A stretch of DNA of 64,000 bases from Polyangiales bacterium (GCA_038231275.1 JBBRLQ010000016.1:146749-210748); one strand, 5' to 3'; shown: positions 29,841 to 53,686, counted from the first letter of the stretch. Notes: generated by a model from the sequence alone, not told the origin. Program-made: numbers and translations.

Positions 29841-30443
29841 TCACCGTGTGCGGAACCGAACGGCCTTCGCGGTGAGGGTCGTCCCCTTGCCTTCGCCCCC
29901 CTCGCCGTGCTCGAACTCGACCTCGACGAGGAGATCGGCGTGGGCGGAGCGCGCTTTGTCGAGCAGCACCTGGAACGCGTGCTCTTCGCCGCCCATGTCG
30001 CCCTTGACCTCGAGCTTGCTGATCACGTCGTACGCGCGCCCCTTGACGAGATCGTTGCAGCGCACGGCCATGCCGGCCAGGTGCGTCGGCTCCTTTCCGC
30101 CCTCGCCGTGCTCGAACTCGACATGGATGACGGCGTCGGCGCCGAGCTTTGCGGCGCGGCGCTTCAGCGTCTCCAGCGCCTGGTCGGTGCTCTCCATTTT
30201 CCTGTGCACGTCGACCGGACCGAGCGCCTCCACGGGGCAGCCGATGTCGGCGGTCTGCATGACCTTGATCTTCGCGGCCCTCGCGACCGTCACCGGATCG
30301 TCGGGCACGCTCTCGTCTTCGTCGTGATCGGCGCCCGCGCTGCCCGCGCCATGCTCGTCGCCCTCGGTCGCCGCCGGCTTTTGCGGCTGGCATCCGACCA
30401 TGACCATCGAGCACGCGAGCAGCGAGATGAGAATCCGTCGCAT
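29841..30443 (-). CDS. lipoprotein with two YbjQ-like domains (copy B1)
   Basis: Lipobox MVGC; AAKLGADAVIHVEFEHGE motif with a second degenerate copy; paralog at 53081. Confidence 0.8.
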   Translation of the reverse strand: MRRILISLLACSMVMVGCQPQKPAATEGDEHGAGSAGADHDEDESVPDDPVTVARAAKIKVMQTADIGCPVEALGPVDVHRKMESTDQALETLKRRAAKLGADAVIHVEFEHGEGGKEPTHLAGMAVRCNDLVKGRAYDVISKLEVKGDMGGEEHAFQVLLDKARSAHADLLVEVEFEHGEGGEGKGTTLTAKAVRFRTR

Positions 30444-30464
30444 GGCAGTCTCCTTCTTTTCGTT

Positions 30465-30917
30465 TCAATCGACCGGGTACGGAACGGCGGGCAGGAACTT
30501 CACGGCGAGTCCCGACAAGTGCGTCGGCTCGCCCTGCGCCTCCCCGTGGTGGAACTCGACGCCGACGACAGCGTCCGCGCCGAGGCGTGCGGCCTTCGTC
30601 TGGAGCGCATGGAGCGCGCCGTCGTGCTTGCCCATCTCTTCGTGCGCGTCGACGACCCCGACGACCTGTGCAGGGCGATCGAGGTGCGTCGATTGGAGGA
30701 TCAAGACGCGCGACGGATCGCCAGCGGCGCGGCCGGCGTTGGACGGCGAGCTCGCCTCGCTCCCCTGCATGTGTCCCGTCGTTTGGTAGACGGTCACCGG
30801 ATACGACAGGTTCTGCGAGTACGAGTACGACGACTGGGGGTGAAACTCCGGGTGGTACTCGCTCTGACACGCCGCCAGCGGCAACGAGAGGAGAGCGGTC
30901 AGGAGGAGCTGCTTCAC
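30465..30917 (-). CDS. lipoprotein with one YbjQ-like domain (copy A1)
   Basis: Lipobox LAAC; DAHEEMGKH...LGADAVVGVEFHHGE; paralog at 52610. Confidence 0.8.
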   Translation of the reverse strand: MKQLLLTALLSLPLAACQSEYHPEFHPQSSYSYSQNLSYPVTVYQTTGHMQGSEASSPSNAGRAAGDPSRVLILQSTHLDRPAQVVGVVDAHEEMGKHDGALHALQTKAARLGADAVVGVEFHHGEAQGEPTHLSGLAVKFLPAVPYPVD

Positions 30918-30939
30918 GATGGCCACTCCCGGTCCCCTC

Positions 30940-30955
30940 TTCACGCGCCATGCCA
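30940..30955 (-). promoter_or_regulatory. variant sigma54-like element (cassette copy 1)
   Basis: TGGCATGGCGCGTGAA; the -12 reads TGAA, as in copy 2. Confidence 0.45.
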
Positions 30956-31096
30956 CGCGTCGCGCACGCGCAACTCCGCTGGCGTGCGCGGCGCGGAGAG
31001 GATCGAGCGGGACAAGACGCGTCGCACGCGGGCGTCGACTCAGGCGCCGAGGTCGTCACGCGGCTCACCGAGCGCGTCGAAGCGCCTAATTTCGGC

Positions 31097-31112
31097 TGGC
31101 ACGTCGCGTGGA
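31097..31112 (+). promoter_or_regulatory. variant sigma54-like element
   Basis: TGGCACGTCGCGTGGA, 14 nt before the ATG at 31125. Confidence 0.45.
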
Positions 31113-31124
31113 AGAGCCGTCGGC

Positions 31125-31514
31125 ATGCGAACAGGTACACGCCACGCCACGAACGCCTTCCTCGCGGTCTTGCTGCTCGCGCTCACCACGGCGGGCGGCC
31201 TCTTCCTCGACGCCGGCGACGATTTCGGAAAGCTCGCCCCCGCCCGGCGCGAGCTCGCCGTGTCCGATGGGCGCTTCGAAGCATGGTCGCTTCAGCTCGC
31301 GCCGGTGGAAGCCGACGCGCCTCCCCCGACTCCCGCCCCACCCACGCCCCGCGCGCCGAAGCGACACGCGCGCCGCCCTCGTCTGGCGAGGCTTCCGCCG
31401 TTGCCGCCGTTGCCGCCGGTAGGGCGCGTAGAGAGCGATGGGCCCAAGGTGCCTTCCATCAACCCCGGCGTGACGGCCGCGGTTGGGTCGCCGGGGGTGA
31501 CCGCGCGACCGTAG
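31125..31514 (+). CDS. hypothetical small exported/membrane Pro-rich protein
   Basis: MRTGTRHATNAFLAVLLLALTTAGG hydrophobic N-terminus. Confidence 0.55.
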   Translation: MRTGTRHATNAFLAVLLLALTTAGGLFLDAGDDFGKLAPARRELAVSDGRFEAWSLQLAPVEADAPPPTPAPPTPRAPKRHARRPRLARLPPLPPLPPVGRVESDGPKVPSINPGVTAAVGSPGVTARP

Positions 31515-31531
31515 AGGCCTATTCTGACGCC

Positions 31532-31846
31532 ATGCGAACGCTCGGAGCTCCTGCGTGTGTGGCGATGCTGATGGTGAGCGCCGCCGGGTGCGCGACGGTG
31601 ACGACGGCGCCCGAGGCTTCACGTCCCCAGCAAGTCGAGCTGCTTCGCGGCGCGAAGATCGAGGTGAGCGACGCCATCAAAGCGGCGACCACGAAGGCTC
31701 CCGGACGCGTGCTCGACACCGAGCTGCGCGCGAAGGGAGGCCACACGGTCTGGGAGGTCGACGTCCTTACGGCCGACGGGAAGGTCGTCGAGGTCGACGT
31801 CGACGCCACCTCGGGCCAGGCGGTGGACTCGGAAGAGCATCGCTGA
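31532..31846 (+). CDS. PepSY-domain lipoprotein
   Basis: Lipobox AAGC; AI.AA....PG.V...EL.....VWEV.V...G...EV.VDA.SG. Confidence 0.85.
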   Translation: MRTLGAPACVAMLMVSAAGCATVTTAPEASRPQQVELLRGAKIEVSDAIKAATTKAPGRVLDTELRAKGGHTVWEVDVLTADGKVVEVDVDATSGQAVDSEEHR

Positions 31847-31847
31847 G

Positions 31848-32666
31848 ATGCGCCTCGCGCAGACTCTGATCGCCCTCGCGGTGCTCGTCGTGGGGTGCAA
31901 GGGGAGCGAGAGCGCGGGGAAGCCGGCGACGCCAAGCGCGTCGGCTCCTGCCTCGAGCGCAACGGCGAGCACGAGCGCGAACGCGAACGCGATGGCGGCG
32001 ACGTCCGCGAGCGCGATCGCCAGCGGGGACGCCGGCGCGAGGATCGCGCGCACGACGGGCGGAGTCGCCGGAGCGGCCGAGACGCGCTTCGTCTTCGACG
32101 CGGACGCGGCCGGCGCGGCTCCGGCAGGCTTCACGTCGCTTCGAACGGGGAGCGGGCGCGTGGGGAGTTGGATCGTGCGCGCCGAAGGAGATGGCCCCGG
32201 CGCGCCGATGATCCTCGCGCAGACGGACGCGGATCCCACCGACAATCGCTTCCCGATGCTCCTCGCCGACGCGCCCGTCCTCGCGGACGTCCAGGTGTCC
32301 GTCCGATGCAAACCCGTGTCGGGGAAGGTCGACCAAGCGTGCGGCGTCGTGTGCCGCGCGAAGGGCGCCGACGACTACTACCTCGCGCGCGCAAACGCGC
32401 TCGAGGGCAACGTCCGCCTCTACGTGGTCGAGCACGGCAAGCGCCGCCAGCTCGAAAGCTACTCGGGCGCAGTCACGGGTGGGCAGTGGCACAAGCTCGC
32501 GCTCTGGTGCCACGGCGCCGGGCTCAGCGTCTACTGGGACGAGGCGCGGGTGCTGCGACAGGCCGACAAGACGTTCACCGAAGCCGGCAAGGTCGGGCTT
32601 TGGACCAAGGCAGACTCGGTCACCTACTTCGACGCCCTCGTCGTTCGCGAGATGTCGAACATGTAG
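31848..32666 (+). CDS. lipoprotein with DUF1080/LamG-like jelly-roll domain
   Basis: Lipobox VVGC; SGKVDQACG, YYLARANALE.NV, GKVGLWTKADS..YFD. Confidence 0.75.
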   Translation: MRLAQTLIALAVLVVGCKGSESAGKPATPSASAPASSATASTSANANAMAATSASAIASGDAGARIARTTGGVAGAAETRFVFDADAAGAAPAGFTSLRTGSGRVGSWIVRAEGDGPGAPMILAQTDADPTDNRFPMLLADAPVLADVQVSVRCKPVSGKVDQACGVVCRAKGADDYYLARANALEGNVRLYVVEHGKRRQLESYSGAVTGGQWHKLALWCHGAGLSVYWDEARVLRQADKTFTEAGKVGLWTKADSVTYFDALVVREMSNM

Positions 32667-32867
32667 CGCTCCGGGCCCCGGCGGCCGTCGTCGGTCGCCC
32701 ACGTGGGCATGTAAACGACGACCCAGTCCAAGTGAACATGACCGTCCACAGCGCGTGCCTCGCCACGCCTCGCGAGGCGCGAACGGATGACGCCCGGAGG
32801 ATCCACTCCACCTCGTGAGGTGTTGAATCCCTTGACTGACCCGGATGCGTGAACTAACCGCCGTCCC

Positions 32868-33881
32868 GTGGGATCTCGCGCCGCGTCGTCCCTCGCGCTG
32901 GCCTGCTTCGTCGTCGTGAGCGCCGCAACGACCGACGCGCGCGCCGACGGCGACGACGTCGCCCTCGACTGGGTCGCGCCCTCCGAGTGCGCGACCGGCG
33001 CGCACGTTGCTGCAGAAATCGCGCGCCTTCGTGCGGGGCCACCACGCGTGCGGGTTCGAGCACACGCGCGCATCACGCGCGACGCGAACGCGTGGTCGTT
33101 GGAGCTGACGACGGAGATCGACGGCGCCGAGCACAAGCGCGCATTCCAGGCGGCGACCTGCGGAGAGCTCTCGGACGCGGCGGCGACGGTGCTCGCGCTC
33201 GAAACCGCGGGCGAGCCGACCCCAACCCCGACCCCGACCCCGACCCCAACTCCGACGCCGACGCCGACCCCGACCCCGACCCCGACTCCGACTCCGACCC
33301 CGACGCCGACGCCGACGCCGACCCCGACTCCGACGCCGACTCCGACTCCGACGCCGACCCCGACGCCGACTCGTCCCTTTGCTGCGGGGGTTGGCGTCGT
33401 TGGAACGGGAGGCGCGGTCGGTCCCTTCGCGCTCGGCGCCGCAATCGTGGGAGCGTGGACGCCGGGCCACGAGCGTGCGGAAATCATGGCCTCGTACAGC
33501 CCCCCGACCCGTGTAGATCGCACCGATCTCTCCATCGGCGGCAACTTCAGCCTCCTCCTCTTCGGCGTCGCGGCGTGCCACGTCTTCGGAGACGGCGTCT
33601 TCCGCGCGGGGCCGTGCGCCGGGATCGAAGCTGGGCGGATCGGCGCGGTGGGCGTCGGCAACGCAGTGCAGACTCCGGAGCCGACGGGCGGCGCATGGGT
33701 CGCGCCGAAAGCGTCGGCCCTCGCGCTGGTCTCGCTGGGGCGCTTCGCGCTCCGAATCGAAGGAGGCGCCGTCATCCCGCTCGTTCGAAATACCTTCACG
33801 ATTACAGGGGTCGACCAGGTTTACCGCCCCGCCGCAGTGGTTGCCAGAGGGGGATTCGGCGTCGAGGTCGCGTTTCCGTGA
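32868..33881 (+). CDS. secreted protein with Pro-Thr linker and C-terminal beta-strand-rich domain
   Basis: Signal peptide; W.AP.EC...C.EL..A.A domain; (PT)26 linker. Confidence 0.75.
   Translation: MGSRAASSLALACFVVVSAATTDARADGDDVALDWVAPSECATGAHVAAEIARLRAGPPRVRVRAHARITRDANAWSLELTTEIDGAEHKRAFQAATCGELSDAAATVLALETAGEPTPTPTPTPTPTPTPTPTPTPTPTPTPTPTPTPTPTPTPTPTPTPTPTPTPTRPFAAGVGVVGTGGAVGPFALGAAIVGAWTPGHERAEIMASYSPPTRVDRTDLSIGGNFSLLLFGVAACHVFGDGVFRAGPCAGIEAGRIGAVGVGNAVQTPEPTGGAWVAPKASALALVSLGRFALRIEGGAVIPLVRNTFTITGVDQVYRPAAVVARGGFGVEVAFP
33216..33371 (+). repeat. (CCGACN)26 coding tandem repeat (Pro-Thr)
   Basis: 156 nt of 6-bp units. Confidence 0.95.
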
Positions 33882-34537
33882 CGACAATCGTTCCGCCGGC
33901 CACTCAACGAGAGTTGGGACCTTCGCTTTCCCCATCCATGACCCTTCGCTTGGTAGACGCCCCCAACGTCCGAGATGCGGCGCACGAGACGGCCGACGGC
34001 GTCGTCGCATTTGCAGATCTGTACGACGCGCACGCCAGCTTCGTCTTTCGCGTCGTCCTTCGCCTCGGCGTAGGGCGCGACGCCGTCGAAGACGTCGTGC
34101 AGGAGATCTTCCTCGTCGTTCATCGTCGGCTCGAAGAGTTCGAGCAGCGTTCGAAGATCCGCACGTGGATCTACGGAATCGCCGTTCGCGTGGCGCGCAC
34201 GTATCGGCGAACGCTGGCGCGGAAGCACTTGAATCCCGAGAATGGCCGCGAAGAGCTCGAATCGCACGTGTTGGCGGACGACGCGACGCGCGCGCCGGAT
34301 GCAGTGCTCGAAAAGGCGCAGGCGGCCGAGCTCGTCGTGACGATCCTGGAAGAGCTCGACGACGAGCTGCGTGAAGTGTTCGTTCTCGCGGAGCTCGAAG
34401 AAATGACGGCGATCGAGATGGGCGAGGTGCTCGGCGTGAGCGCGAACACGGTGGCATCGCGCTTGCGATTGGCGCGACGCGATTTCGATCGCGCGCTCAC
34501 CCGAGCGCGTGCCCGCGACGAATGGAGGATGCGGTGA
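33878..34537 (+). CDS. ECF RNA polymerase sigma factor
   Basis: VEDVVQEIFLVVHRRL..F.....RTWIYGIA; VFVLAELEEM...E.GEVLGVS.NTV.SRLRLAR. GTGA overlap; alternative ATG at 33938. Confidence 0.92.
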   Translation: MTTIVPPATQRELGPSLSPSMTLRLVDAPNVRDAAHETADGVVAFADLYDAHASFVFRVVLRLGVGRDAVEDVVQEIFLVVHRRLEEFEQRSKIRTWIYGIAVRVARTYRRTLARKHLNPENGREELESHVLADDATRAPDAVLEKAQAAELVVTILEELDDELREVFVLAELEEMTAIEMGEVLGVSANTVASRLRLARRDFDRALTRARARDEWRMR

Positions 34538-35397
34538 GCGATCTGAGCCGAGAGGCCCGCGCCCTGCTCTCGCGCGCAAAGAGCTCCGATCACGGCCTCC
34601 CCGACGCCGCGTCGCTCGCGCGCACGCGAGGCAGCGTCCTGCGTCGTGCGGGAATGGGCGCCGCGGCGGGCGTAGCGACCGCGGCCGCGAGCACGGCGAC
34701 GAAGGCGGCCCCCGTCCTCGTCGCAGCAGGCGCGACGGGAGTGTCTGTTTCGGTGACTGCGAAGGTCGTGCTCCTCGCGGCGCTCCTGACGGGCGGCGCG
34801 GTGGCCGCCGTATCGATTCCGAGCGCTCCGACGCCGAGCGCGCGGGTGGCGGTCGCAGTGGCTCCACACGGGCCAAGCCGAGCGCCCGAGTCGAAGCAAA
34901 CGGCCGCACCGCCGCCGGTGGCGACTCCGAGCCCGACTCCGACGCCGACTCCGACGCCGACTCCGACGCCGACGCCGGCTCCGACTCCGGCTCCGACTCC
35001 GGCTCCGACTCCGGCTCCGACTCCGGCTCCGACTCCGGCTCCGACTCCGACGCCGACTCCCGTTCCGCCCGCGTCTCCGGTTTTTTCGACGGCGTCCGAT
35101 CCGGCGCCTCTTCCGCCGCCCCCGCCCCCTCTTCCGGGCCTGTCGTCGGACATCGCGCACCTTCGCGCGTCGCAAGCCGCGCTCGCGGCCGGAGACGCGC
35201 GAACGGCGGAGCACGAAGCGGCGCGCGTGTCAGCGACTGGGCCGCTCGCAGAAGAGCGTGACGGCATGCTCACCCTCGCGGGGTGCGCTCTAGGAAGCGA
35301 CGCAGAGGCCGCGCGCCAGGGGACGGATTTCGTGCAGAGGCATCCGTCGTCCGCGCTCGTGCCGCGCGTGCGTTCGGCGTGCGGCAATTCGATTTGA
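34522..35397 (+). CDS. putative membrane anti-sigma factor
   Basis: Directly follows the ECF gene; TM helix, Pro/Thr linker, TPR-like C-terminus (LAEER...F..RHP.S). Confidence 0.7.
34924..35061 (+). repeat. Pro-Thr/Pro-Ala coding tandem repeat
   Basis: Contains perfect (CCGGCTCCGACT)x6 at 34975-35046. Confidence 0.9.
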
Positions 35398-35437
35398 TCA
35401 CGAAACGGCGCGTAGCGGTCACCCACGTGACGAAGAG

Positions 35438-36124
35438 GTGATCATGACCATCCGAGCTTTTCATCGCGTATTCTTGACGGCCGCCGCAACCGCAGCGGTG
35501 CTCGTGGCGTGCGGAGGCGACATCGCCATTGGTTCTTCGCAGAACCCGCTCGTCGGCGACGCGTGCGCCGTCTCCGAATGCGGAGCTACGCCGTTCACGT
35601 GCAGCAACGGCGCGGCCACCGACGTCGCATGTACGCGTCATCAAGGCGCATGCACGTGGTCGGGGAAATGCCCCGGCGATTGTCCACCCGCGAAGTGCGC
35701 GGACGAAGCCGTGGGATGCGCAGGCAGCTCCGCGGACGGCGGGCCTATCACTCCGCTTTTCCCGACCAACTTGCGTTGCGCCCCCAGCGCGTTCCGCGGC
35801 GTCGGCTCGGCGCCCGCCGATCAGTGCGAGATCCTCTTCGAATGCGCGCCGAAGCCCGTCGTCACGTGCGCGGCATCGGCATGCGCGAACCAAGGTTTCG
35901 CGTGTTTGACGGGGCCCGCAACGAACCTGCGATGCGTGCCCGATCCGAACGCCGGTGTAGGGTCCAACCCGGTGGGCGCCTGCCTGCTCCTCGGCGATTG
36001 CCCGTCGGGCAACGATGCGTCCGCGGGACCCCCGACGCCACCACCGACGTCAGCGCGGGAAACGGCAACGACGCCTCCGTCGACGCCGGACGCTGACTGG
36101 AGCGAAGCGCTGCGGTCGCTGTGA
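35438..36124 (+). CDS. Cys-rich repeat lipoprotein
   Basis: Lipobox LVAC; three Cys-rich modules, two with TNLRC...GVGS.P...C. Confidence 0.75.
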
Positions 36125-36132
36125 CCGCGTAC

Positions 36133-36570
36133 TCAGTGCGATCCGACGAGCGCAGTCGCGATGAACAGGGCCGAACAAATCCACACGGCCGCGGCGGTGA
36201 TCACGAGCGAGATCCTCACCGCGGGGCGCTGCAGGAATGGGGTCGACGGGAAGACGGACCGATACACGACCGATGCCTCGGGCTCGGGCGACTCCACTGC
36301 GAGCCAGAACTCGTCGAAGCGGCGCTGCGACTCCTGGTCGCGCGGCGGAGCGACCGTGACGCGGACATGGATCTCGGTGAGGGCCGCGTCGTTTTCGTCG
36401 TCGGCGAAGAGGTCTTGCGTTCCCGCGGCCATGGCGCCGGTCGAATCCGGCACGAGCTCGAGGTGCGGCCGCGCGCGCCAGGACACGCTCGACGCAGCGG
36501 CGTCCACGTCGACGATTTCGAGGGGGAAACGTGGAAGAACCTTGCGAGAATCGTCGGCGGTAGCGGGCAC
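36133..36570 (-). CDS. hypothetical protein with C-terminal TM helix
   Basis: GTG start after AAAGG; sigma54-like GGGCTTGCAGGTTGCC at 36617-36632. Confidence 0.5.
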   Translation of the reverse strand: MPATADDSRKVLPRFPLEIVDVDAAASSVSWRARPHLELVPDSTGAMAAGTQDLFADDENDAALTEIHVRVTVAPPRDQESQRRFDEFWLAVESPEPEASVVYRSVFPSTPFLQRPAVRISLVITAAAVWICSALFIATALVGSH

Positions 36571-36726
36571 GGGCAGACCTTTCGTGGCGGTGGCGGCGCC
36601 AGTGTTCCTCAGAATCGGCAACCTGCAAGCCCAGGCGACGCTTTTTCTCCGTCTCTTTGCGCAATCGCGCGCAACGGGGACCGCCAAACCCGTCTCGAGA
36701 GGCGCTTTTCGTCCTGACGGCTGCGC

Positions 36727-37344
36727 TTACCCCAGACCGTGCTCTTTCGCGATCGCCGCGTTCTTCGCGTCGCCTCGCTGCGCCGCCGGCCGCGCTCCGA
36801 GTCGCTCGGCGTATTCCCCGAGGGTGGGGCTCGGCTCGAGCATCTTGAAGCGCAACATGAAGCGGAGCGTCCCGCCGAAGATGCAGTCGGCCATCGAGAA
36901 GCGGTCGCCCAGGACGAAGGTCCGTCCTGCGATCGCGCTCTCCATCGCGCCGACCATGCTCTCATACGTGCCCCATCCGACCTGGCCGGGCTTGAACTGC
37001 CCGCCGGAGCTCTTGGCCGACATCGCCGGCTCGATGACCGACGGCGCGAAGAGCGACCAGCGCAGATAAGGACCCCGCTCCGGATCGTCAGGCGCCGGCG
37101 CCAGCTTCCCGAGCGCGTACCGGTCAGCGAGGTAGAGCCCGATGGCCGCCGACTCGGTCACGACGACATCGCCGTCGCGCAAGATGGGGACCTTCCCCAT
37201 CGGGTTCAGCGCGAGGACCTCCGGAGACTTCTGCGCGTTCTTCATGAGGTCGACGAAGGCCAGCTCGTAGGGAGCCCCGACCTCCTCGAGCATCCAGAGC
37301 GTGTTGGCGGCGCGCGAGTAGGGGTGGTGGTACAGCGTGATCAT
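36727..37344 (-). CDS. glutathione S-transferase family protein
   Basis: SRA..LWMLEE, LNPMGKVP.L, ESAAI..YL, GDRFS.AD; SD GAGGAGG. Confidence 0.92.
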   Translation of the reverse strand: MITLYHHPYSRAANTLWMLEEVGAPYELAFVDLMKNAQKSPEVLALNPMGKVPILRDGDVVVTESAAIGLYLADRYALGKLAPAPDDPERGPYLRWSLFAPSVIEPAMSAKSSGGQFKPGQVGWGTYESMVGAMESAIAGRTFVLGDRFSMADCIFGGTLRFMLRFKMLEPSPTLGEYAERLGARPAAQRGDAKNAAIAKEHGLG

Positions 37345-37372
37345 CCGGTTCATCCTCCTCGCGGGAGATTAC

Positions 37373-37849: not shown

Positions 37850-37954
37850 CGTGGTGGGCTCCTCGTGCTCCGATTGGCGTGAAGACGCGGGAGCGTACTT
37901 CGAATCACGTGCCCAAGCCGAGCGCGATGAGTCCCCGTCGCGCGCGATGGGGAA

Positions 37955-38418
37955 ATGCGGCAGATCCATTCGGATTGGTGCGCCCCCGCGTCCGGGCAGA
38001 CGACCATCTCGGCGTTCGACTCGACGCCGCCGAGCCAAGCGACGATCGCGGCCGCGATGCACACCAACCACGGCACCACCCTCCCGAACGTCGTGCCCGC
38101 GCTCAACCACTTCCAGCACAAGAACGCGTACATCCTGTCGACGGTGTCGAGCACGAGCGGCCTCTTCAACCTGGTTCACTACAACACGGACTTCCGCACG
38201 CTCCGCTCGTCGCAGGCGTGCGCGGCAAATACCTCCCCACCTGGGCGGCGCACGGCTTCGACGGCTACCACGCGATCGCGCCGGACGGCTGGATCCAAAG
38301 CGGCAGTCGCTACTGGATCCGGGATCCGCTCCAGGTCTCATGGCGCGGCGCGCACGCGTTCCCCGCCTCGACGGTCATGACCGTGGTGCCAGGGTTCACG
38401 TCGCAGGTCGTCCGGTAA
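37955..38418 (+). pseudogene. frameshifted C39-like (papain-fold) peptidase remnant
   Basis: Q....WCAPAS...GT...LN in one frame; YH and IRDP in another frame after about 38218. Confidence 0.55.
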
Positions 38419-38491
38419 CGAAGATAGAAAAAGAGAGCGCGGCGCGCAGGAATCCGCGAAATTCGGCGCCGCAAGTGTCTACGCTTCTAGG

Positions 38492-39691
38492 ATGACCGAC
38501 GGCGGGCCGATCGATCCCGAGCTCAGCGCGAAGAACGCGCGGCTTCGCTACGTGAGCGACGACCGACCGGGGCTCTCGCGCGAGCGGATCGGGACGAGCA
38601 ACGACTTCAGGTACCTCACGGCCAGCGGCGACGAGATCGACGACGAGGCGACGCTGGCCCGCATACGCTCGCTCGCCATTCCCCCGGCGTGGGAGAAGGT
38701 CTGGATCTGCCCGCTCACCAACGGCCACATTCAGGCCACCGGCCGCGACGCCAAGGGCCGAAAACAATACCGCTACCACTCGCGGTGGCACGCGGTCCGC
38801 GACGTCACGAAGTATGCACGCATGATCGACTTCGCGACGTCGTTGCCAAAGACGCGCGCGGCGATCGAGGTTCATCTCCAGCGGCCTGGGCTACCGCGAG
38901 AGAAGGTGCTGGCCACGATCGTCCGGCTGCTCGAGGTGACGTGCATCCGCGTGGGGAACGAGGAGTACGCGCGCAAGAATCGCTCGTACGGCCTGACGAC
39001 GCTGCGCAATCGTCACGTCGACGTCTCGGGGAGCTCGGTGCGCTTTCGGTTCCGCGGCAAGAGCGGCCAGGCGCACGTCATTCGGATGAAGGACCGGCGC
39101 CTCGCGCGGATCGTCGCGCGGTGCAGCGAGCTGCCGGGCCACGAGCTCTTTCAATACATCGACGACGAAGGCGTGACGTGCACGGTGGAGTCGTCGGACG
39201 TGAACGCGTACATCAAGGAGATCTCCGGCGGCGACTTCACCGCGAAGGATTTCCGCACCTGGGTGGGGACGGTGAGCGCGGTGCGGGCGCTCCGCGAGCA
39301 GGCGCCCGCGGCGTCGGGGAACGACGTGAACAAGCAGCTCGTCGCCGCCGTGAAGCTCGTCGCCGATCGCCTCGGGAACACGGCGGCCGTCTGCCGAAAA
39401 TCGTACATCCACCCTGCGGTCATCGACGCGTGGGTCAACAGAGGCGGCTCCGACTCGATCTTCCCACCGCCCCCGAGCTCGCTGATTGACGCGAGCCCGC
39501 CGACGACGGCGAGCCGCGTCGCCGGCGAGCTCGTCGTGAACGTGAACACGCCGGAGGACGACCTCGACGCCGACGAGCTCGCGACGCTCAGGTTCCTCCA
39601 GAAGAACCCAAGCGACGAGGACGAGGCCCGCGCGCTGCGCCGCAAGCTCTTGAAGAGCATCTCGGCGGCCCGTGAAAAGAAGGCCTCCTGA
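38492..39691 (+). CDS. DNA topoisomerase IB (bacterial)
   Basis: AIPPAW, GRDAKGRKQYRYH, IRVGNEEY, FRGKSG, AKDFRTW, LGNT.AVCRKSY. Confidence 0.95.
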   Translation: MTDGGPIDPELSAKNARLRYVSDDRPGLSRERIGTSNDFRYLTASGDEIDDEATLARIRSLAIPPAWEKVWICPLTNGHIQATGRDAKGRKQYRYHSRWHAVRDVTKYARMIDFATSLPKTRAAIEVHLQRPGLPREKVLATIVRLLEVTCIRVGNEEYARKNRSYGLTTLRNRHVDVSGSSVRFRFRGKSGQAHVIRMKDRRLARIVARCSELPGHELFQYIDDEGVTCTVESSDVNAYIKEISGGDFTAKDFRTWVGTVSAVRALREQAPAASGNDVNKQLVAAVKLVADRLGNTAAVCRKSYIHPAVIDAWVNRGGSDSIFPPPPSSLIDASPPTTASRVAGELVVNVNTPEDDLDADELATLRFLQKNPSDEDEARALRRKLLKSISAAREKKAS

Positions 39692-41231: not shown

Positions 41232-41243
41232 CGTCTGGAGCTC

Positions 41244-44592: not shown

Positions 44593-44593
44593 G

Positions 44594-44995: not shown

Positions 44996-45140
44996 GCGAC
45001 GAATGGTACTCCCGCTTTCGGCCGCGCGATCACGCCCGTCGACGCGACGCTTCCGACGAAGGCGCGCCGGGGATACGCTTGTACGGTTGGCTGCGGACAA
45101 GGAAATCGGGAGCGCGGAGACCCTCATCGCCGGCGAGGCT

Positions 45141-47447: not shown

Positions 47448-47462
47448 CGACGGACAAGGACG

Positions 47463-47630
47463 TCAGTTGCAGCCGCAGCCGCCGCCGCTGCCTGAGAGGC
47501 CGCCGGTCGCCCCCTCCGAGACGGCGCGAACGTGGCCGTCGAGACCGGGAGCGAGATCCTGCGCGGTCATCGTCGGGTGCGCGAGCTTCTCGCGATCCCA
47601 CGGCGGCACCGACGCGCAACCGGCCGAAGC
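47463..47630 (-). pseudogene. DUF4266-family remnant (no signal peptide or start)
   Basis: GCASVPPWDREKLAHPTM...H...SEGATGG..GSGGGCGCN*; the upstream frame lacks a hydrophobic leader. Confidence 0.7.
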
Positions 47631-47770
47631 TCTCTCCGGACCCCGCCCTTCGCCCTCAACAGAAGTTCCATGACGGCTCGCCGCAGTCGCATGACGTCGC
47701 CACTGTGGAGCGAAAACGCGCCGGCCCTCGTGCTCTCCGCGCATCCACCTGCCGATTGCGTGAGGCTTCG

Positions 47771-49045
47771 TCAGCCCGACACCTTGCGCGCCGTCGAGCC
47801 CTCCGGTTGCTTGTACCAACCCGGATCGTCGTAGCTCGTGATTCCTTCGCGGACCTTCAGGATCGTGAACATCCCGCCCATCTCGACCGGCCCGAACGGG
47901 CCCGTGCCGGTCATCATCGGCAGCGTGTTCTTCGGGCGCGGCATGTCCATCATCCCGCCCATGCCCGCCTCACCCATCGCCATGTAGCCCGGAAGGATCG
48001 AGCGCACCTTGCCCTCGACCGCTCCCTGCTTGACCCCGATCATGTTCGGAAGATCGTGGCTCATCGCGTTCATCGTGTGATGCGACTTGTGGCAATGGAA
48101 GGCCCAGTCGCCGGGGACGTCGGCGACGAGCTCGATGTCGCGCGTGGCGCCGACCGGCACGTCGACCGTGGTCTCGGACCAGCGGGCGCCCGGCGGGACG
48201 CGGCCGCCGTCGGTGCCCGTCGTCTGGAACTGGTAGCCGTGGAGGTGGATGGGGTGGCTGTCCATGCTCAGGTTGCCGAAGCGGACGCGGACGCGATCAC
48301 CCTTCTTCACGACGAGCGGCGCGGTGCCCGGCCACACGCGGCTGTTGAACGTGAAGATGTTGAAGTCCGTCATCACGGCCGGGTTCGGGCGCGACGTGCC
48401 GGGGGCGACGAACCATTCGTGCAGCATGATGGCGAAATCGCGATCGACGCGCGGCGTCTCCGCAACGCGGGGATGAATGATGAAGAAGCCCATCATGCCG
48501 AGCGCCATCTGCACCATCTCGTCAGAGTGCGGGTGGTACATGAGCGTGCCATGCTGGCGGAGCGTGAACTCGTAGACGTACGTCTCGCCGGGCTCGATGT
48601 GCGGCTGGTTCAAGCCGGCGACGCCGTCCATGCCGTTGGGAAGGAGCACGCCGTGCCAGTGCGCGCTCGTGCGCTCGGGGAGCTTGTTCGTGACGAAGAT
48701 GCGGACGCGGTCGCCCTCGACGGCTTCGATCGTCGGACCCGGCGTCTGCCCGTTATAGCCCCAGCAGTCGACCACCATGCCCGGCGCGAACTCGCGCTTG
48801 ACCGGCTCGGCCACGAGACGGAACACCTTGACGCCGTTGTCCATCGTCCATGGGAGCGTCGCCCCGTTCGGCATCACGACCGGCGTGTATTTGCCGTTCG
48901 CGGCAGCGCCGCCGCTGACCAGGGGGGGCGCGGCGCCTGCGGGAGCGCCGGCGGGCGCGGCCGACGCCGTGCCTCGCGTGAGCATCGATCCACCGAGGAG
49001 CGCCGCACCGGTTGCCAGCGCCCTTCGCCTGTCGAGCTTGTTCAT
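47771..49045 (-). CDS. multicopper oxidase (Tat-exported, CuoB-like)
   Basis: DRRRAL Tat-like signal; HWHG, MYHPH, HPIHLHG, HCHKSHH; Met-rich tail. Confidence 0.92.
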   Translation of the reverse strand: MNKLDRRRALATGAALLGGSMLTRGTASAAPAGAPAGAAPPLVSGGAAANGKYTPVVMPNGATLPWTMDNGVKVFRLVAEPVKREFAPGMVVDCWGYNGQTPGPTIEAVEGDRVRIFVTNKLPERTSAHWHGVLLPNGMDGVAGLNQPHIEPGETYVYEFTLRQHGTLMYHPHSDEMVQMALGMMGFFIIHPRVAETPRVDRDFAIMLHEWFVAPGTSRPNPAVMTDFNIFTFNSRVWPGTAPLVVKKGDRVRVRFGNLSMDSHPIHLHGYQFQTTGTDGGRVPPGARWSETTVDVPVGATRDIELVADVPGDWAFHCHKSHHTMNAMSHDLPNMIGVKQGAVEGKVRSILPGYMAMGEAGMGGMMDMPRPKNTLPMMTGTGPFGPVEMGGMFTILKVREGITSYDDPGWYKQPEGSTARKVSG

Positions 49046-50439
49046 GGTTGTCCTGAGGGTTGGTGATGGTGAAGGGTCGCGGGCAGGCTGAGTCGACCGC
49101 CGACCGCGCGCTCCAAGTCCGATCGCGCGATCCAGTAGTCGCGCGCGGACTCGATGAATTCCCGGTACGCCGTGACCTCGTTCTGTTTGGTCAGGAGGAG
49201 CTGATGGACGCCGAGCAGCATGGCGTCAAATTCCTGCTGCGACAGCGCGACGATTCGCTCGCGCAGAGGGATGAGGACGCGCTGGTAGCGCTCGACGATG
49301 GTGCGGCTCGCACTCAGGCGATCGCGTGCAGCGCGGACCTCCGAGCGGATGTCGACGGCGCGCGCGGCGTACCGATGCTCGCTCGCGCGAAGCGCCGCCT
49401 CGACCCGAGCGATCGCCGCTTGCCGCTGATCGAAGATGGGCAGCTCGACGCTCGCCGAGGGGCCGAGCGCGATGTTTCCGTCCTTCAGCTGCGCGCCCTC
49501 GAGGCCAACGTCGAGGGCACCGATCCAGCGACCCGACCGCGCCAGCGAGAGCACGTACCCCAGCGTTTGAACCTCGCGCAGCGACGCCTGCAAGTCGAGG
49601 CGCTGCGCGACGGCCGCCGACTCGAGGTGCTCGAGGGGCACTTCGTCTTTCGGAAGCTCCGGGAGCTTCTCGGTGAGCCGGAAGGCGGCCCGCTTGCCCC
49701 AGACCCCCATAAGGCGCGTCAAACGCTCGCGCGCCGCGGCGACGTCGGCTTCGCTGCGCGACGTGTCGAGCTGGATCTGCTCGAAGAGGCCCTGCTCGGT
49801 GGCCAGCGTGAGATCGCTCACGTTGCCGGCCGAGTTCTGCCGCTCGGCGAGCTCCGCGCTGACCTGCGCTGCGTCACGGACCGCGCGCCGCATCGCGAGC
49901 ACTTGCATCGTGCCTTGGAGCCCGTAGTACGCGGTGCGTACTTCCGCCGCGAGGTCGAGGACCGCATCGGCGACGCGCAGCTTGGCCCCCTCGAGCTGCT
50001 TCTCCGCGATCGCCTTTTTGGCCGGCAGAAACAGCACGCTCAAGAAGTCCTGGGTGACGTTCAAGACGAGGTTCGGGTCGAGCGTGTCGCGCTCCGCGGT
50101 CGTCATCCGCGCGCCGAACACCGGGTTTTTCAGAAGGCCCGCCTGAACGACGTCGGCCTGGCCGATGCTCAGCTCCTCGTAGGTCGCCTGGAGGGATCGG
50201 TTGTAGAGGAGCGCGACCTGAACGGCGGCGTCGACGGTGAGCTCCTTGGCGAGCATCCCGTCGACGGCCCGCTCGACGTCCTTGTCGGCGGCTCCCGCCT
50301 GGTTCCACTGGACGCGCTGCGCCGACCTTTGCTCCACCGCCTTCGCGACGTCGCGAAACGCGGGCTCCGGCGACGTAGACGCGCAGCCCGCGACGAGCGC
50401 GAGCAGCGGCGCGAGCGCCCTCCTCTTGGTCGCGCTCAC
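49042..50439 (-). CDS. TolC-family lipoprotein associated with the copper oxidase
   Basis: Lipobox VAGC; AVQVALL.N..LQA, ELPIFD, IRSEVR; His-containing tail. Confidence 0.88.
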   Translation of the reverse strand: MSATKRRALAPLLALVAGCASTSPEPAFRDVAKAVEQRSAQRVQWNQAGAADKDVERAVDGMLAKELTVDAAVQVALLYNRSLQATYEELSIGQADVVQAGLLKNPVFGARMTTAERDTLDPNLVLNVTQDFLSVLFLPAKKAIAEKQLEGAKLRVADAVLDLAAEVRTAYYGLQGTMQVLAMRRAVRDAAQVSAELAERQNSAGNVSDLTLATEQGLFEQIQLDTSRSEADVAAARERLTRLMGVWGKRAAFRLTEKLPELPKDEVPLEHLESAAVAQRLDLQASLREVQTLGYVLSLARSGRWIGALDVGLEGAQLKDGNIALGPSASVELPIFDQRQAAIARVEAALRASEHRYAARAVDIRSEVRAARDRLSASRTIVERYQRVLIPLRERIVALSQQEFDAMLLGVHQLLLTKQNEVTAYREFIESARDYWIARSDLERAVGGRLSLPATLHHHQPSGQP

Positions 50440-50669
50440 TTCATCTCCATGTGCTGATGATCGTGCGCGGACGCCGCGGGCGGCGGCGCGCTGCTCGCCG
50501 GGGTCGTCGCGCTGAGCGAGCCCGCGGGCACGAAGGAAACCTCGGACGCGTTCGGGTTGGCGGGATGATCGGGGGCCCGTGCCGGCTCGATGGGGTCGCC
50601 CACGCAGGCGAGCGCCGCGAGCGATACGGGAAGCACGACGATCGAAAGCACGCGGAGAGAGAAACGCAC
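50436..50669 (-). CDS. small lipoprotein with His/Met tail
   Basis: Lipobox ALAC; DHPANP.A motif; C-terminal HDHQHMEMK; ATGA overlap with tolC. Confidence 0.7.
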   Translation of the reverse strand: MRFSLRVLSIVVLPVSLAALACVGDPIEPARAPDHPANPNASEVSFVPAGSLSATTPASSAPPPAASAHDHQHMEMK

Positions 50670-50681
50670 GGTCGGCGTTCT

Positions 50682-50697
50682 AGCACTGGCGTGCCCG
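50682..50697 (-). promoter_or_regulatory. sigma54-like promoter (tolC-MCO operon)
   Basis: CGGGCACGCCAGTGCT, 14 nt before the GTG. Confidence 0.4.
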
Positions 50698-50768
50698 ACG
50701 AGGAATCGGGAGCGCACGAGCGCGCTGCCTGGACGCAGGAAGAGGAGCGTGATCTACTTTCTCGATTC

Positions 50769-52166
50769 ATGAAGGTCACCCTCCTCGGTCACGCGTCGGT
50801 TCTCGTCGAGCTCGACGGCGCCCGTTGCTTGATGGACCCGGTATTCCTGGACCCCTTCGAGGACACCGCCGTCGTGTCGTGCCCGCGACGCGAAGTGCAC
50901 GTGGACAAGCTCCCGCCGATCGACGTCTTGATCATCTCGCACGCGCACTTGGATCACTTCGACGTCCCGTCGCTCGCGCGCGTCTCTCGCGACGCTCAGG
51001 TTCTCTGTCCGAAGGATCCTCTGATCACGTACGCGCTCCAGCAGCTCGGCTTCAAGAGAGTCAACGCCGCGGAGCCGCTCACGCAAATCAAGGCCGGCAA
51101 GTACGAGTTGCTCACGACTCTCTCGAGCGTCTCCAACATCGTCGAGTTCGGCGTGGTCTTCAAGGATCGCAGCGGCACGTTCTGGAATCAGGTCGACACC
51201 ATCGTCGCCCCGGAGACGGCCGCATCGACGCTCGCGCGTGTCGGCAAGATCGATCTGCTCTTCGCGATGTACGCGAGCCAGAATTTCGGATTTTTCGAGA
51301 GTCGCCCCCTCGCGTTCCCGTACGAGACGCACGAGATGAACCTGCGGAACGTCATGGCCATCCGGCCGAGGATGGTCGCGCCGGGCTCGGCGGGCTTCCG
51401 CTTCGCCGGCCCCGGAATGGATTGGTGCAACTCGCTCCTATTTCCGATGGCGCGCGAGCGTTTTCTGGCCGACCTCGCGAAGGTTGCTCCCGACGTCCAG
51501 GCGCGGATCGCCAATCCTGGGGACGTCTTCGAGATCTCTCCGGACGCGGTCGCCCACACCGCATCGTCGTCGCCGCTCGCGACGATGCTCGAGGACGATA
51601 CCGCGCGCTTGCGCTTCGACTCCACTGGAGAGGTGCCGGCGCTGCGCGATCCCAACCCCGACGGCTATCCGCCGGAGCGCCTCACGAACGCTGTGGACGA
51701 GTGCATGGCGGGGTTCCTACGCTTCATCCGGCAAGCGTACGACGCCGGCGATCCGGTGGTCGCGGAGTACCGGCAATGCGGCGCGACGTACGCGGCCGCC
51801 GTCGTCTTCCCTGACGGGGAGGAGCGCTGGTACCGCGTCGACTTTGGCGGGGCCCAGCCGCGCGTCGTCATCGGGACCAGCGCGGACGCGCCCGCCGTAC
51901 CGCCTGACGCGATGCACCGCATCGTGGCGTCAGCGCTCGCCGCGCGCGCGGCGCACGAGAAGAGCTATTTCTACCTGCGCGCCTTCTCACGCAAGGCCTG
52001 CAACGTCTACGTGCTCACCGACAAGGATGGCAAGGCGTCGGTCGTACCGAAGGAGCTGCGCGACCTCCTGGCCTACTACTTGGAGCGCAAGGCTCCCGGC
52101 GCCGAGTTCGCCGTCAAGACCTGGATGGACCGGCAGCTGGCGCCGTACCTCGCGAAGCGGGTCTGA
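50769..52166 (+). CDS. MBL-fold metallo-hydrolase (UlaG-like)
   Basis: LGHAS, LMDP and ISHAHLDH motifs. Confidence 0.85.
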   Translation: MKVTLLGHASVLVELDGARCLMDPVFLDPFEDTAVVSCPRREVHVDKLPPIDVLIISHAHLDHFDVPSLARVSRDAQVLCPKDPLITYALQQLGFKRVNAAEPLTQIKAGKYELLTTLSSVSNIVEFGVVFKDRSGTFWNQVDTIVAPETAASTLARVGKIDLLFAMYASQNFGFFESRPLAFPYETHEMNLRNVMAIRPRMVAPGSAGFRFAGPGMDWCNSLLFPMARERFLADLAKVAPDVQARIANPGDVFEISPDAVAHTASSSPLATMLEDDTARLRFDSTGEVPALRDPNPDGYPPERLTNAVDECMAGFLRFIRQAYDAGDPVVAEYRQCGATYAAAVVFPDGEERWYRVDFGGAQPRVVIGTSADAPAVPPDAMHRIVASALAARAAHEKSYFYLRAFSRKACNVYVLTDKDGKASVVPKELRDLLAYYLERKAPGAEFAVKTWMDRQLAPYLAKRV

Positions 52167-52176
52167 CCGTAGACGG

Positions 52177-52374
52177 TCAACGATGGCCGGCGTCGGGCGC
52201 GTCGATGGCGCCGCACGAGCCTCCCTCGTGACCGCCGCACGCGTGCTTGTCGGCGGCGATGGTGGCGGGGCTCGGCGCGTCCGTGCGCGCCGCCTTAGAA
52301 TCACCCGCCGCGCCGGCGCACCCGGCGACGATTCCAAGGATCGCCGAAATCGCGAGGCTCGTTCCAATGGTCAT
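52177..52374 (-). CDS. 65-aa lipopeptide with HACGGHEGGSCG motif
   Basis: SD GAGGAGG; lipobox VAGC; sigma54 box TGGCACGCGCCGCGCA at 52389-52404. Confidence 0.7.
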   Translation of the reverse strand: MTIGTSLAISAILGIVAGCAGAAGDSKAARTDAPSPATIAADKHACGGHEGGSCGAIDAPDAGHR

Positions 52375-52569
52375 GTGCCTCCTCACCTTGCGCGGCGCGT
52401 GCCAGCGTCTGCGGTGTGTAGGGGTCCGCGCGGGGGCCGCGGAAAAGCGCCCGCCCCAGTGACGACAGGCTGGGGCGAACGGGCCCGCGCGCGCCCATCT
52501 GCGGGGCGGCGGCGACGTCGCCGTGTCACCGCTCATGCTCGACCTGCCATCTTGCCCGGATTTCTTGGG

Positions 52570-52585
52570 TGGCACGCAGCATGAA
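52570..52585 (+). promoter_or_regulatory. variant sigma54-like element (cassette copy 2)
   Basis: TGGCACGCAGCATGAA. Confidence 0.5.
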
Positions 52586-52609
52586 GTAGACGAGTCGCAG
52601 AGGCTCACA

Positions 52610-53062
52610 GTGAACAAGCTCCTCTCGATCTCGCTCGCGGCGCTGCCCCTTGCGGGATGCGCGAGCGAATCTCACCCCGAGTATCACCCGGTGTCGTCGT
52701 ACTCGGTCTCCCAGAACCTGTCGTACCCCGTCACCGTCTTCGAAACGACGGGCCACATGGCCGGGTCCGAGGCTCCGCCGATCCCGCCGGCGGCGCGAGC
52801 CGGCGTGGATCCGTCGCGCGTCCTCATCCTTCAGTCAACCCACCTGGACCGCCCATCGCAGGTCGTTGGGGTCGTCGACGCGCACGAGGAGATGGGCAAG
52901 CACGACGGCGCTCTTCGCACGCTGCAACTCAAGGCCTCACAGCTCGGCGCCGACGCGGTCGTCGGCGTCGAGTTCCACCACGGCGAAGCTCAGGGCGAGC
53001 CAACACACCTGTCGGGCCTCGCCGTGCGCTTCCTGCCCGCCGTTCCCTATCCCGTCGATTGA
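52610..53062 (+). CDS. lipoprotein with one YbjQ-like domain (copy A2)
   Basis: Highly similar to 30465-30917. Confidence 0.8.
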   Translation: MNKLLSISLAALPLAGCASESHPEYHPVSSYSVSQNLSYPVTVFETTGHMAGSEAPPIPPAARAGVDPSRVLILQSTHLDRPSQVVGVVDAHEEMGKHDGALRTLQLKASQLGADAVVGVEFHHGEAQGEPTHLSGLAVRFLPAVPYPVD

Positions 53063-53080
53063 GAAGCAAAGGAGACTGCC

Positions 53081-53686
53081 ATGCGACGAGTTCTGATTTC
53101 ACTGCTCGCGTGCTCGATGGTCGTCATGGGGTGCGAGCGCCAGACGCGCCCCGCGATGACGGGGGGTGACGAGCACGGGGCCGAGGCGGCTGGCGCCGAT
53201 CACGACGAGGACGCCATCCCCGACGATCCGGTCACCGTCGCGCGGGCCGAGCACGTGAAGGTCATGCAGACCGGCGACATCGGCTGCCCGGTCGAAGCTC
53301 TCGGCCCGGTGGACGTGCACAAGAAGATGGGGAGCACGCAGCAATCGTTGGAAGCCCTCAAGCGGCGCGCGGCCAAGCTCGGGGCCGACGCCATCATCAA
53401 CGTCGAGTTCGAGCACGGCGAGGGCGGCAAGGAGCCGACGCACCTCGCGGGGATGGCGGTGCGGTGCAACGATCTTCTGAAGGGGCGCGCGTACGACGTG
53501 ATCAGCAAGCTCGAAGTGAAAGGCGACATGGGCGGCGAAGAGCACGCCTTCGCCGCGCTCCTCGCGAAGGCGCGCGACGTCCATGCGGACCTGCTCGTCG
53601 AGGTCCAGTTCGAGCACGGCGAAGGCGGCGAGGGTCAGGGCACGAGCCTGAGCGCGAAGGCCATTCGGTTTCGCGGCTCGCGCTGA
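53081..53686 (+). CDS. lipoprotein with two YbjQ-like domains (copy B2)
   Basis: Highly similar to 29841-30443; same SD context AAGGAGACTGCCATG. Confidence 0.8.
   Translation: MRRVLISLLACSMVVMGCERQTRPAMTGGDEHGAEAAGADHDEDAIPDDPVTVARAEHVKVMQTGDIGCPVEALGPVDVHKKMGSTQQSLEALKRRAAKLGADAIINVEFEHGEGGKEPTHLAGMAVRCNDLLKGRAYDVISKLEVKGDMGGEEHAFAALLAKARDVHADLLVEVQFEHGEGGEGQGTSLSAKAIRFRGSR

Follow-up and report, generated by a model that had tools for sequence, protein, structure and literature searches.

YbjQ and RcsF are the described proteins closest in fold to those considered here. The canonical YbjQ protein stands alone, is ~105 amino acids (aa) long and has no signal peptide; RcsF carries two structural disulfides made from four conserved Cys residues and is not known to have a His cluster. 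Where PMC4092069 treats the fold, it groups RcsF, DUF1471, YbjQ/UPF0145, DUF74 and a selenium-binding protein together, and its account of the YbjQ family says that the proteins form pentamers and are 'predicted to bind metals'. The DUF4156 lipoproteins are likewise uncharacterised, and the papers listed for the family name it merely in passing. No function was described for YbjQ/UPF0145 in the literature that we searched; a description of YbjQ as a thiamin phosphate synthase (PMC7084401) was not used, because we believe that it reflects confusion with the unrelated YjbQ family. Here we describe a cassette encoding two lipoproteins, A and B, that occurs twice in a 64,000-nucleotide stretch of DNA from a Polyangiales bacterium (GCA_038231275.1 JBBRLQ010000016.1:146749-210748; hereafter the window; 69% G+C). 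Copy 1 lies on the minus strand at 29841-30917 and copy 2 on the plus strand at 52610-53686, which agrees in position and strand with the inverted duplication reported in a first-pass annotation of the window. A and B represent a real, undescribed subfamily that most likely has a role in handling metals.

In an AlphaFold model, B (201 aa) folds into two strand-helix-strand-strand units (mean predicted local distance difference test score (pLDDT) 80.9, predicted template modelling score (pTM) 0.69), preceded by a disordered linker at residues 19-40 (pLDDT <50). The model of A (150 aa; mean pLDDT 68) contains a single such unit at residues 71-141 and is disordered at residues 32-60 (pLDDT <50). 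The assignment of one domain to A and two to B in the first-pass annotation is borne out by these units and by hhalign, which places A residues 67-141 onto B residues 55-129 with a probability of 99.9 and 43% identity. With both domains confidently modelled in one chain, B would be compatible with an internal pseudo-dimer. When compared with the PDB using Foldseek, the A model matches the YbjQ/DUF74 structures 3qkb, 1vr4 and 1y2i (E 1.7e-4 to 1e-3, probability 1.00), as well as RcsF (2y1b, E 9e-4) and the YdgH domain 4evu. For B the top match is RcsF 2y1b (E 6.8e-3), and 1y2i, 3qkb and 1vr4 follow at E 0.018-0.04 (probability 0.98-0.99). RcsF structures 2y1b and 2l8y are among the top matches for both models, and more distant ones include the selenium-binding protein 2jz7, YdgH (DUF1471), FvfA and dodecins.

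The sequence-based searches are consistent with this picture over the core of the domain. The Pfam YbjQ_1 model (PF01906) scores B1 at 31.3 bits and B2 at 29.1 bits, above its gathering cut-off of 23 bits, and A1 (22.2 bits) and A2 (20.7 bits) fall just under it. The match covers profile positions 56-89 of 103, corresponding to the helix-strand core, and the rest of each domain is recognisable at the level of the fold alone. A precomputed PF01906 label is carried by nearly all B homologues and by none of the A homologues. DUF4156 (PF13698) gives partial, weak matches over the same core (E 0.005-0.1, 13.5-17.6 bits versus a cut-off of 28.9), and the NCBIfam RcsF model PRK10781 matches B1 only (E 0.054, 13.6 bits versus a cut-off of 140). 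Neither Pfam RcsF (PF16358), at E values up to 1, nor the DUF1471 model matches the A and B proteins of the window, and one B homologue, P0063, has a precomputed PF07338 match. A sequence search of solved structures returned marginal matches only (1y2i at E 0.05-0.08), and the ESM Atlas provided no more than leads, to the protein's own cluster and to DUF1471 and RcsF at 0.87-0.89. Of the three families with which a comparison had been suggested, YbjQ and RcsF are equally good structural matches, the quality of the RcsF match having been overlooked at first, and DUF4156 remains below its cut-off. On the predicted models, A and B are a subfamily of the YbjQ/RcsF/DUF4156 fold, and the YbjQ-like signature recognised earlier is part of it. 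No fused or longer relatives were present among 8000 scored candidates, which is weak evidence; two long proteins from the exhaustive search described below, P0365 and P0387, were rejected as fused forms because they consist of repeats of a different DUF4156/RcsF-like unit and lack any other informative domain.

The feature that sets A and B apart is a pattern of conserved polar residues. In 29 aligned A sequences, the lipobox Cys is invariant, as are E20, H22, P23, H26 and P27 within an E-Y-H-P-E-Y-H-P stretch, together with H78, D80, R81, D90, H92, the GADAV core, H124, G125, E126, P131, T132 and H133. Invariant positions in 37 aligned B sequences include the lipobox Cys, D78, H80, H112, G113, E114, T120, H121, C129, M150, E153, H179 and G180. 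In every complete domain, strand 1 invariably ends in D-x-H and strand 2 in F-[EH]-H-G-E, and strand 3 opens with T-H. This motif, first noted in the window copies, extends across the family: the pattern [VI]D.H...A[DEQN]A...F.HG[ED]...HL[SA]G is found in 116/120 of the A matches listed and 102/120 of the B matches listed, and a YHPEYHP-type motif in 115/120 and 0/120, respectively. The motif His residues are missing from 1y2i and 2gtc, the two YbjQ structures aligned. The strand order of the fold puts the ends of strands 1 and 2 and the beginning of strand 3 at the same pole of the sheet, so that the D-x-H, H-G-E and T-H residues would be expected to come together there. Such strict retention of His, Asp and Glu at set positions points to a defined binding site and not to a bulk surface effect. 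The Cys pair of B, likewise noted earlier, is a family trait, with Cys129 invariant and Cys69 kept in at least 90% of the 37 sequences; A contains no Cys beyond that of the lipobox.

We compared the two copies by protein and DNA alignment and estimated dN/dS by the Nei-Gojobori method. A1 and A2 are identical at 119 of 150 residues (79%) and B1 and B2 at 163 of 199 (82%); at the DNA level the mean column identity is 85% over the entire alignment including flanks, with ~15% of bases differing. DNA likeness stops at the gene borders, save for a 17-base box before A and the A-B junction AAGGAGACTGCCATG. The A pair has a dS of 0.77 and a dN/dS of 0.20, the B pair a dS of 0.75 and a dN/dS of 0.15, and the ratio falls to 0.10-0.13 when the calculation is limited to the folded parts of A and B. 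A tree built from 44 B homologues joins B2 to P0002, a protein of another genome, as its sister (support 99/91) and leaves B1 outside the pair. These values, along with the position of B2, indicate that the duplication is old and that the copies are paralogues, both maintained under purifying selection. An assembly artefact, a possibility raised in the first-pass annotation, is ruled out because ~15% of bases differ between the copies and because the tree places B2 with a protein of a different genome and not with B1. A tblastn search of the window revealed no third cassette, and no terminator was found after B1 or B2.

A word-based search retrieved 120 B and 483 A relatives, mostly metagenomic and labelled at most 'YbjQ (UPF0145 family)' or 'hypothetical'. 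When 1.84 billion representatives were searched exhaustively with a profile, just 238 matches were found at E ≤0.001 and 169 at 1e-10; the family is small. A scan of GTDB species genomes identified 25 loci, all in records titled as metagenome-assembled genomes (MAGs) of Myxococcota and spanning Myxococcales, Polyangiales, Polyangiaceae, Byssovorax, Sandaracinaceae and 'delta proteobacterium'; the subfamily is restricted to (soil) myxobacteria/Myxococcota. Some MAGs carry more than one locus (L008, L009 and L023; L002 and L016; L006 and L019), and L004 contains two interleaved cassettes. B comes after A, on the same strand, in 21 of the 25 loci, the exceptions being L006 (partial B match only), L002 (A without B), L008 (which ends just after A) and L024 (a divergent B-like gene).

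The cassette had been described as a two-gene unit, and the A-B pair does recur, but a third gene was overlooked. This gene, S, is present in 16 of the 25 loci (L001-L012, L014, L019, L021 and L024) and encodes a lipoprotein of 61-91 residues. The mature protein begins with C-x3-YHPEYHP and ~20 further conserved residues, a region that is homologous to the A N-terminus, and its tail is Pro-rich, ending for example in PPEGFPW or PPPGFFD. S lies directly upstream of A in 11 loci, with stop and start codons adjacent or overlapping; it is divergent in four (L008-L011) and downstream in L024. S is the third gene of the ancestral operon; in the window, tblastn detected no S gene.

Both copies are preceded by a box of the pattern TGGCAY-N6-TGRA, which occurs three times in the window versus an expectation of 0.16, a count reached by 0/100 shuffles. 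The same pattern has 17 matches in the 25 loci, 16 of them just upstream of an operon-first S or A gene; the remaining match, at L001 3770-3785, is found before a gene homologous to the window gene at 31125-31514. Boxes with TGT or TGC at -12 serve L002, L006, L008 and L019, and 9/10 interior A genes behind S lack a box. We liken the box to a sigma-54 promoter because it combines TGGCAC and TG at GG-N10 spacing, and we infer that the cassettes are sigma-54-controlled. Four such boxes had been proposed for the window. Three are above chance and are of a type kept beyond it, but the fourth, GG-N10-GC at 52389-52404, is not: its looser pattern has three window matches versus 1.28 expected and is reached by 16/100 shuffles. 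Similarly, the non-consensus -12 element (TGAA) reported as common to both copies is shared within the window but is not fixed in the family, where all four bases occur at the -12 position; the sites in the window have TGAA or TGGA, and the GC doublet is confined to 52389-52404.

The spacing between box and gene falls into two classes. In the first, which comprises at least 12 of the 21 boxes, the start codon lies 28-31 bases past the initial T of the box and the interval contains no Shine-Dalgarno sequence, an arrangement seen in the window at 31097-31127 and 52374-52404. The remaining boxes, those of A1 and A2 included, have 20-35 extra bases along with a Shine-Dalgarno sequence. Provided that the box acts as the promoter, the start codon of the first class sits a few bases past the expected transcription start, which suggests that many boxes give rise to near-leaderless transcripts.

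The genomic setting provides the link to metals. As the first-pass annotation had it, copy 1 lies ~4 kb from metal-efflux genes, namely those of a CusA/CzcA-family resistance-nodulation-division (RND) pump, and copy 2 lies within a copper cluster. On one side of copy 2 is a group of genes for a multicopper oxidase, an outer-membrane factor and a metallo-β-lactamase (MBL)-fold protein; the other side has genes for an outer-membrane factor, a CusB-like adaptor, a CusA/CzcA-family pump, a copper-type P1B-ATPase and an extracytoplasmic function (ECF) sigma factor. For the other loci, open reading frames (ORFs) within ~7.5 kb of the cassette were called with a crude filter on third-position G+C and matched to Pfam at E ≤1e-5. 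This gave 229 ORFs, to which L009 and L023 contributed none, L008 one and L012 few. In 8/25 loci, hallmark metal-resistance genes occur within 7.5 kb of the cassette, mostly at <3 kb, and 5/25 have weaker links (Table 1); 8/25 have none, and 4/25 (L008, L009, L012 and L023) are too short or poorly called to judge. The linkage seen in the window recurs, as hallmark genes, at about a third of the loci and is missing from as many. Specialisation of the copies for different metals, also suggested earlier, gains from paralogues in one MAG that lie beside different systems: the cation diffusion facilitator (CDF) and CsoR-type genes of L006 versus the CusB-type and RND genes of L019, and the multicopper oxidase and P1B-ATPase of L002 versus the RND fragment of L016. 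The heterogeneity of the linked systems argues against a metal-specific chaperone. The same MBL-fold (Lactamase_B_2/3) protein is encoded just upstream of the cassette both in the window, at 50379-52166 (+), and in L015, at 643-2142, and an ECF sigma gene is adjacent to the cassette in L015 and L017, where no metal gene was seen.

The fold, the invariant polar residues, the conservation of operon and box, the metal-related neighbours, the Cys/His accessory gene described below and the precedent of the curA operon lead us to read the cassette as an operon under regulation whose products, His-rich and lipid-anchored and of the YbjQ/RcsF fold, take part in handling envelope metal ions. Of the readings considered this has the best support, but we advance it tentatively, with a little less belief than doubt. 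Expressed from a sigma-54-controlled operon, A and B would be exported and lipidated, and the flexible linker would hold the small strand-helix-strand-strand domains in the periplasm. One pole of each full domain would gather the D-x-H, F-[EH]-H-G-E and T-H residues, with extra sites offered by the invariant E-Y-H-P-E-Y-H-P beside the lipidated Cys of A and by the acidic, His-containing linker of B. These sites would bind divalent metal ions, and A and B, joined by S where it is present, would buffer, hand over or report surplus metal in the envelope, aiding the neighbouring efflux and oxidase systems. Metal binding, the clustering of its ligands, association of A with B, dependence on sigma-54 and induction by metal are all inferred elements of this scheme.

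Several observations weigh against metal handling as we propose it. The second B domain lacks D-x-H and T-H. There is no Sigma54_activat gene in the window, and such genes occur near the cassette in L007 and L020 only; moreover, a k-mer search of the 180 bases before 20 boxes gave no convincing shared upstream activator site, the top 8-mer being present in seven sequences versus a maximum of six in mononucleotide shuffles. The Pfam label 'putative heavy-metal-binding' is, for YbjQ itself, a prediction only (compare the wording of PMC4092069 on the family). The loci in which no metal gene was found within 7.5 kb are L001, L007, L014, L015, L017, L018, L022 and L024, and the count of 8/25 for hallmark genes stands without random Myxococcota neighbourhoods for comparison, so that an excess is a matter of judgement. 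The linked systems are mixed, of copper, zinc/cobalt, chromate and iron type, and chromate is an oxyanion and not an obvious ligand of His clusters.

Of the alternatives, two keep some force, although we consider neither likely. The first is that A and B are RcsF-like envelope-stress sensors, in which the tethered domain would report outer-membrane or cell-wall damage, possibly caused by metals, to a signalling partner without sequestering the metal itself. The structural matches favour this idea, RcsF 2y1b ranking first for B and near the top for A, as does the shared architecture of lipobox, disordered linker and small α/β domain. From the strand order, Cys69 and Cys129 of B could staple the domain in the manner of the RcsF disulfides, and a regulated sigma-54-type promoter would fit a stress module. 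The RcsF family models, however, do not recognise the proteins at their cut-offs, and A has only its lipobox Cys. No Rcs components were seen, nor do the cassettes have a conserved kinase or IgaA-like neighbour, and a sensor of this kind leaves the many invariant His residues unexplained. The second alternative, which we find similarly doubtful, is that the metal link is incidental and that a lipoprotein operon of unrelated function, in the cell wall or in development for example, resides in variable islands where metal genes accumulate. The eight loci without a nearby metal gene fit such a view, as do the otherwise very varied neighbourhoods (kinases, hydrolases, S1-domain proteins) and the location of P0002, the closest relative of B2, which in L020 lies in a context different from that of B2. 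Against coincidence, metal genes are found within ~1.2 kb of the cassette in L005, L006, L013, L016, L020, L021 and L025, and both window copies, like the same-MAG paralogues, are each beside a different metal system.

BhsA/ComC, a DUF1471 protein, is induced by copper and lowers copper permeability. General envelope protection of this type, with stress-induced proteins that alter outer-membrane permeability or the surface without a specific ligand, is quite improbable for A and B. In its favour, DUF1471 shares its fold with RcsF, YbjQ/UPF0145 and DUF74 in the grouping given by PMC4092069, the A model matches YdgH 4evu, P0063 carries PF07338 and the cassette neighbours resistance systems for chemically unrelated ions, chromate included. 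Against it, the DUF1471 model matches none of the window proteins and the fixed-position conservation of His, Asp and Glu suggests a defined binding site.

Table 1. Genes, putative promoter boxes and metal-related neighbours of the cassettes in the window and in other loci
Feature	Position	Strand	Remarks
A1	30465-30917	-	ORF; GTG start; lipobox LAAC; N-terminal C-x3-YHPEFHP, disordered linker, one YbjQ/RcsF-like domain
B1	29841-30443	-	ORF; ATG start; lipobox MVGC; acidic His-containing linker, two tandem YbjQ/RcsF-like domains
A2	52610-53062	+	GTG start; lipobox LAGC; paralogue of A1
B2	53081-53686	+	ATG start; lipobox VMGC; two-domain lipoprotein, paralogue of B1
Sigma-54-type box TGGCATGGCGCGTGAA	30940-30955	-	Upstream of A1
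Sigma-54-type box TGGCACGTCGCGTGGA	31097-31112	+	Before the operon divergent from A1; same box type before the homologous gene in L001
Sigma-54-type box TGGCACGCAGCATGAA	52570-52585	+	Upstream of A2
Sigma-54-like box TGGCACGCGCCGCGCA	52389-52404	-	GG-N10-GC, before the small lipoprotein gene; not above chance by pattern alone
Outer-membrane factor, CzcB-like adaptor, CusA/CzcA-family RND pump	19876-25727	+	~4 kb from copy 1
CusA/CzcA-family RND pump near copy 1	22524-25727		TIGR00914, 948.7 bits versus a cut-off of 701
Copper-type cluster round copy 2	47771-63439		Pfam/NCBIfam matches
Pro-rich protein	31125-31514	+	129 aa; N-terminal hydrophobic segment; divergent from copy 1; L001 homologue with 37% identity, E 8e-16
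PepSY-domain lipoprotein	31532-31846	+	104 aa; after the Pro-rich gene, same strand; Pfam PepSY E 5.3e-12
Small lipoprotein with C-G-x-H-x-G-x2-C	52177-52374	-	65 aa; divergent from copy 2
S, example in L006	9705-9968
S, example in L007	9726-9980
L002, hallmark genes			Multicopper oxidase, P1B-ATPase with HMBD
L005, hallmark genes			Outer-membrane factor, multicopper oxidase, ECF sigma, P1B-ATPase, ChrB
L006, hallmark genes			CDF transporter, CsoR-type repressor
L013, hallmark gene			CDF transporter
L019, hallmark genes			CusB-type adaptor, RND pump, ECF sigma
L020, hallmark gene			ChrB
L021, hallmark genes			CsoR-type repressor, outer-membrane factor, multicopper oxidase
L025, hallmark genes			ChrA, ChrB, PepSY
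L003, weaker link			TerB
L004, weaker link			DUF305, ECF sigma
L010 and L011 (syntenic), weaker links			FeoB
L016, weaker link			RND fragment

Small genes accompany the cassettes in the window and elsewhere. The Pro-rich protein encoded divergently from copy 1 has no Pfam or NCBIfam match, and a second PepSY gene, in addition to the one that follows it, is found near the cassette in L025. Homologues of the small lipoprotein divergent from copy 2 are encoded directly after B in L004 (8478-8669 region) and after the Pro-rich gene in L001 (~3201-3365, -), and its C-G-x-H-x-G-x2-C motif makes it a candidate Cys/His metal site.

Other features of the window are recorded here as observations in their own right. 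The ECF sigma factor beside the P1B-ATPase, at 60084-60896 (-), combines a CPC motif with a Cys-rich tail at its C-terminus, CGACAAAGCADCTC, and may be similar to the metal-dependent CorE-type sigma factors of Myxococcus xanthus. The CusB-like adaptor ORF ends, at ~56750-56846 (+), in a Pro/Met-rich tail PPMPPMPGMPGMPGM, a type of tail common in Cu(I)-binding proteins. DUF5916/CBM9 and DUF1529 (DUF1259) proteins are encoded at 670-3294 (-) and 3248-4273 (-), and also beside cassettes in L005 (11420-14038) and L020 (4117-5277); these genes may be part of the same islands as the cassettes. The window also contains an ORF at 6413-7447 (+) that matches the collagen triple-helix repeat (Pfam Collagen, E 4.9e-9) and, at 38381-39691 (+), a bacterial type IB topoisomerase gene (Topoisom_I, Top1B_N_bact).

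A more elaborate version of metal handling can be imagined, although we think it improbable as a whole. S, A and B would form a lipid-anchored assembly, of a kind not seen before, for metal storage or sensing in the myxobacterial envelope, in which His-lined domains oligomerise like YbjQ pentamers or dodecin cages and trap surplus metal, with the copies dedicated to different efflux systems and the entire set, including the Pro-rich, PepSY and C-G-x-H-x-G-x2-C proteins, constituting a sigma-54 regulon with near-leaderless transcripts. Even in the simpler form favoured above, metal binding by A and B would provide the first functional anchor for the large unexplained YbjQ/DUF4156 fold group and would extend the known periplasmic metal-handling proteins, CusF, CopC, CopK and the like, by a new kind. 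The conserved box defines a small regulon, from which the responsible activator and its signal could be traced in Polyangia, where genetic data are very scarce. Should A and B not bind metal, they would still be a clean and testable case of RcsF-like lipoproteins outside the enterobacteria.

How, then, do A and B compare with the systems already described? Like the YbjQ/UPF0145/DUF74 proteins (1vr4, 1y2i, 2gtc and 3qkb), they have the strand-helix-strand-strand fold and the LGADAVVGV signature that leads from the helix into strand 2. Unlike YbjQ, they are exported lipoproteins with a signal peptide, an invariant lipobox Cys and long linkers, B is a tandem two-domain protein and both carry the His/Asp/Glu motif that 1y2i and 2gtc lack. 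RcsF (2y1b, 2l8y) is their best or near-best structural match and, like them, has a lipobox, a disordered linker and a small α/β domain, and B has a partial counterpart of its Cys residues in the single conserved pair, Cys69 and Cys129; there is, however, no significant match to an RcsF sequence model, and A has no Cys pair. The DUF4156 proteins (PF13698) are also lipoproteins with a weak partial match over the core, but at scores under the cut-off. Literature searches on YbjQ, UPF0145, DUF4156 and the motif yielded no description of the A/B subfamily, the YHPEYHP motif or the operon, in keeping with the initial impression that the system had not been characterised.

The nearest published parallel comes from Acinetobacter, for which PMC10132057, in the part that covers the adeIJK/adeXYZ RND efflux operon, reports two adjacent, uncharacterised YbjQ-family genes conserved after it. 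As with A and B, these are tandem genes beside an RND operon, but the pump is described there as a multidrug and not a heavy-metal exporter. A second parallel concerns regulation. In the account given in PMC3707914, the copper-induced curA operon of M. xanthus is activated by the sigma-54-dependent regulator CorR (CorSR), and it resembles the cassettes in encoding myxobacterial envelope proteins of the metal response from putative sigma-54 promoters; a DUF305 lipoprotein family is common to that operon and to the cassette neighbourhood in L004. As presented in that account, the curA operon differs in having no YbjQ-like gene, and the window has no CorSR-like pair. The novelty of A and B lies in a known fold placed in a new architecture, with a new sequence motif and in a new genomic setting.

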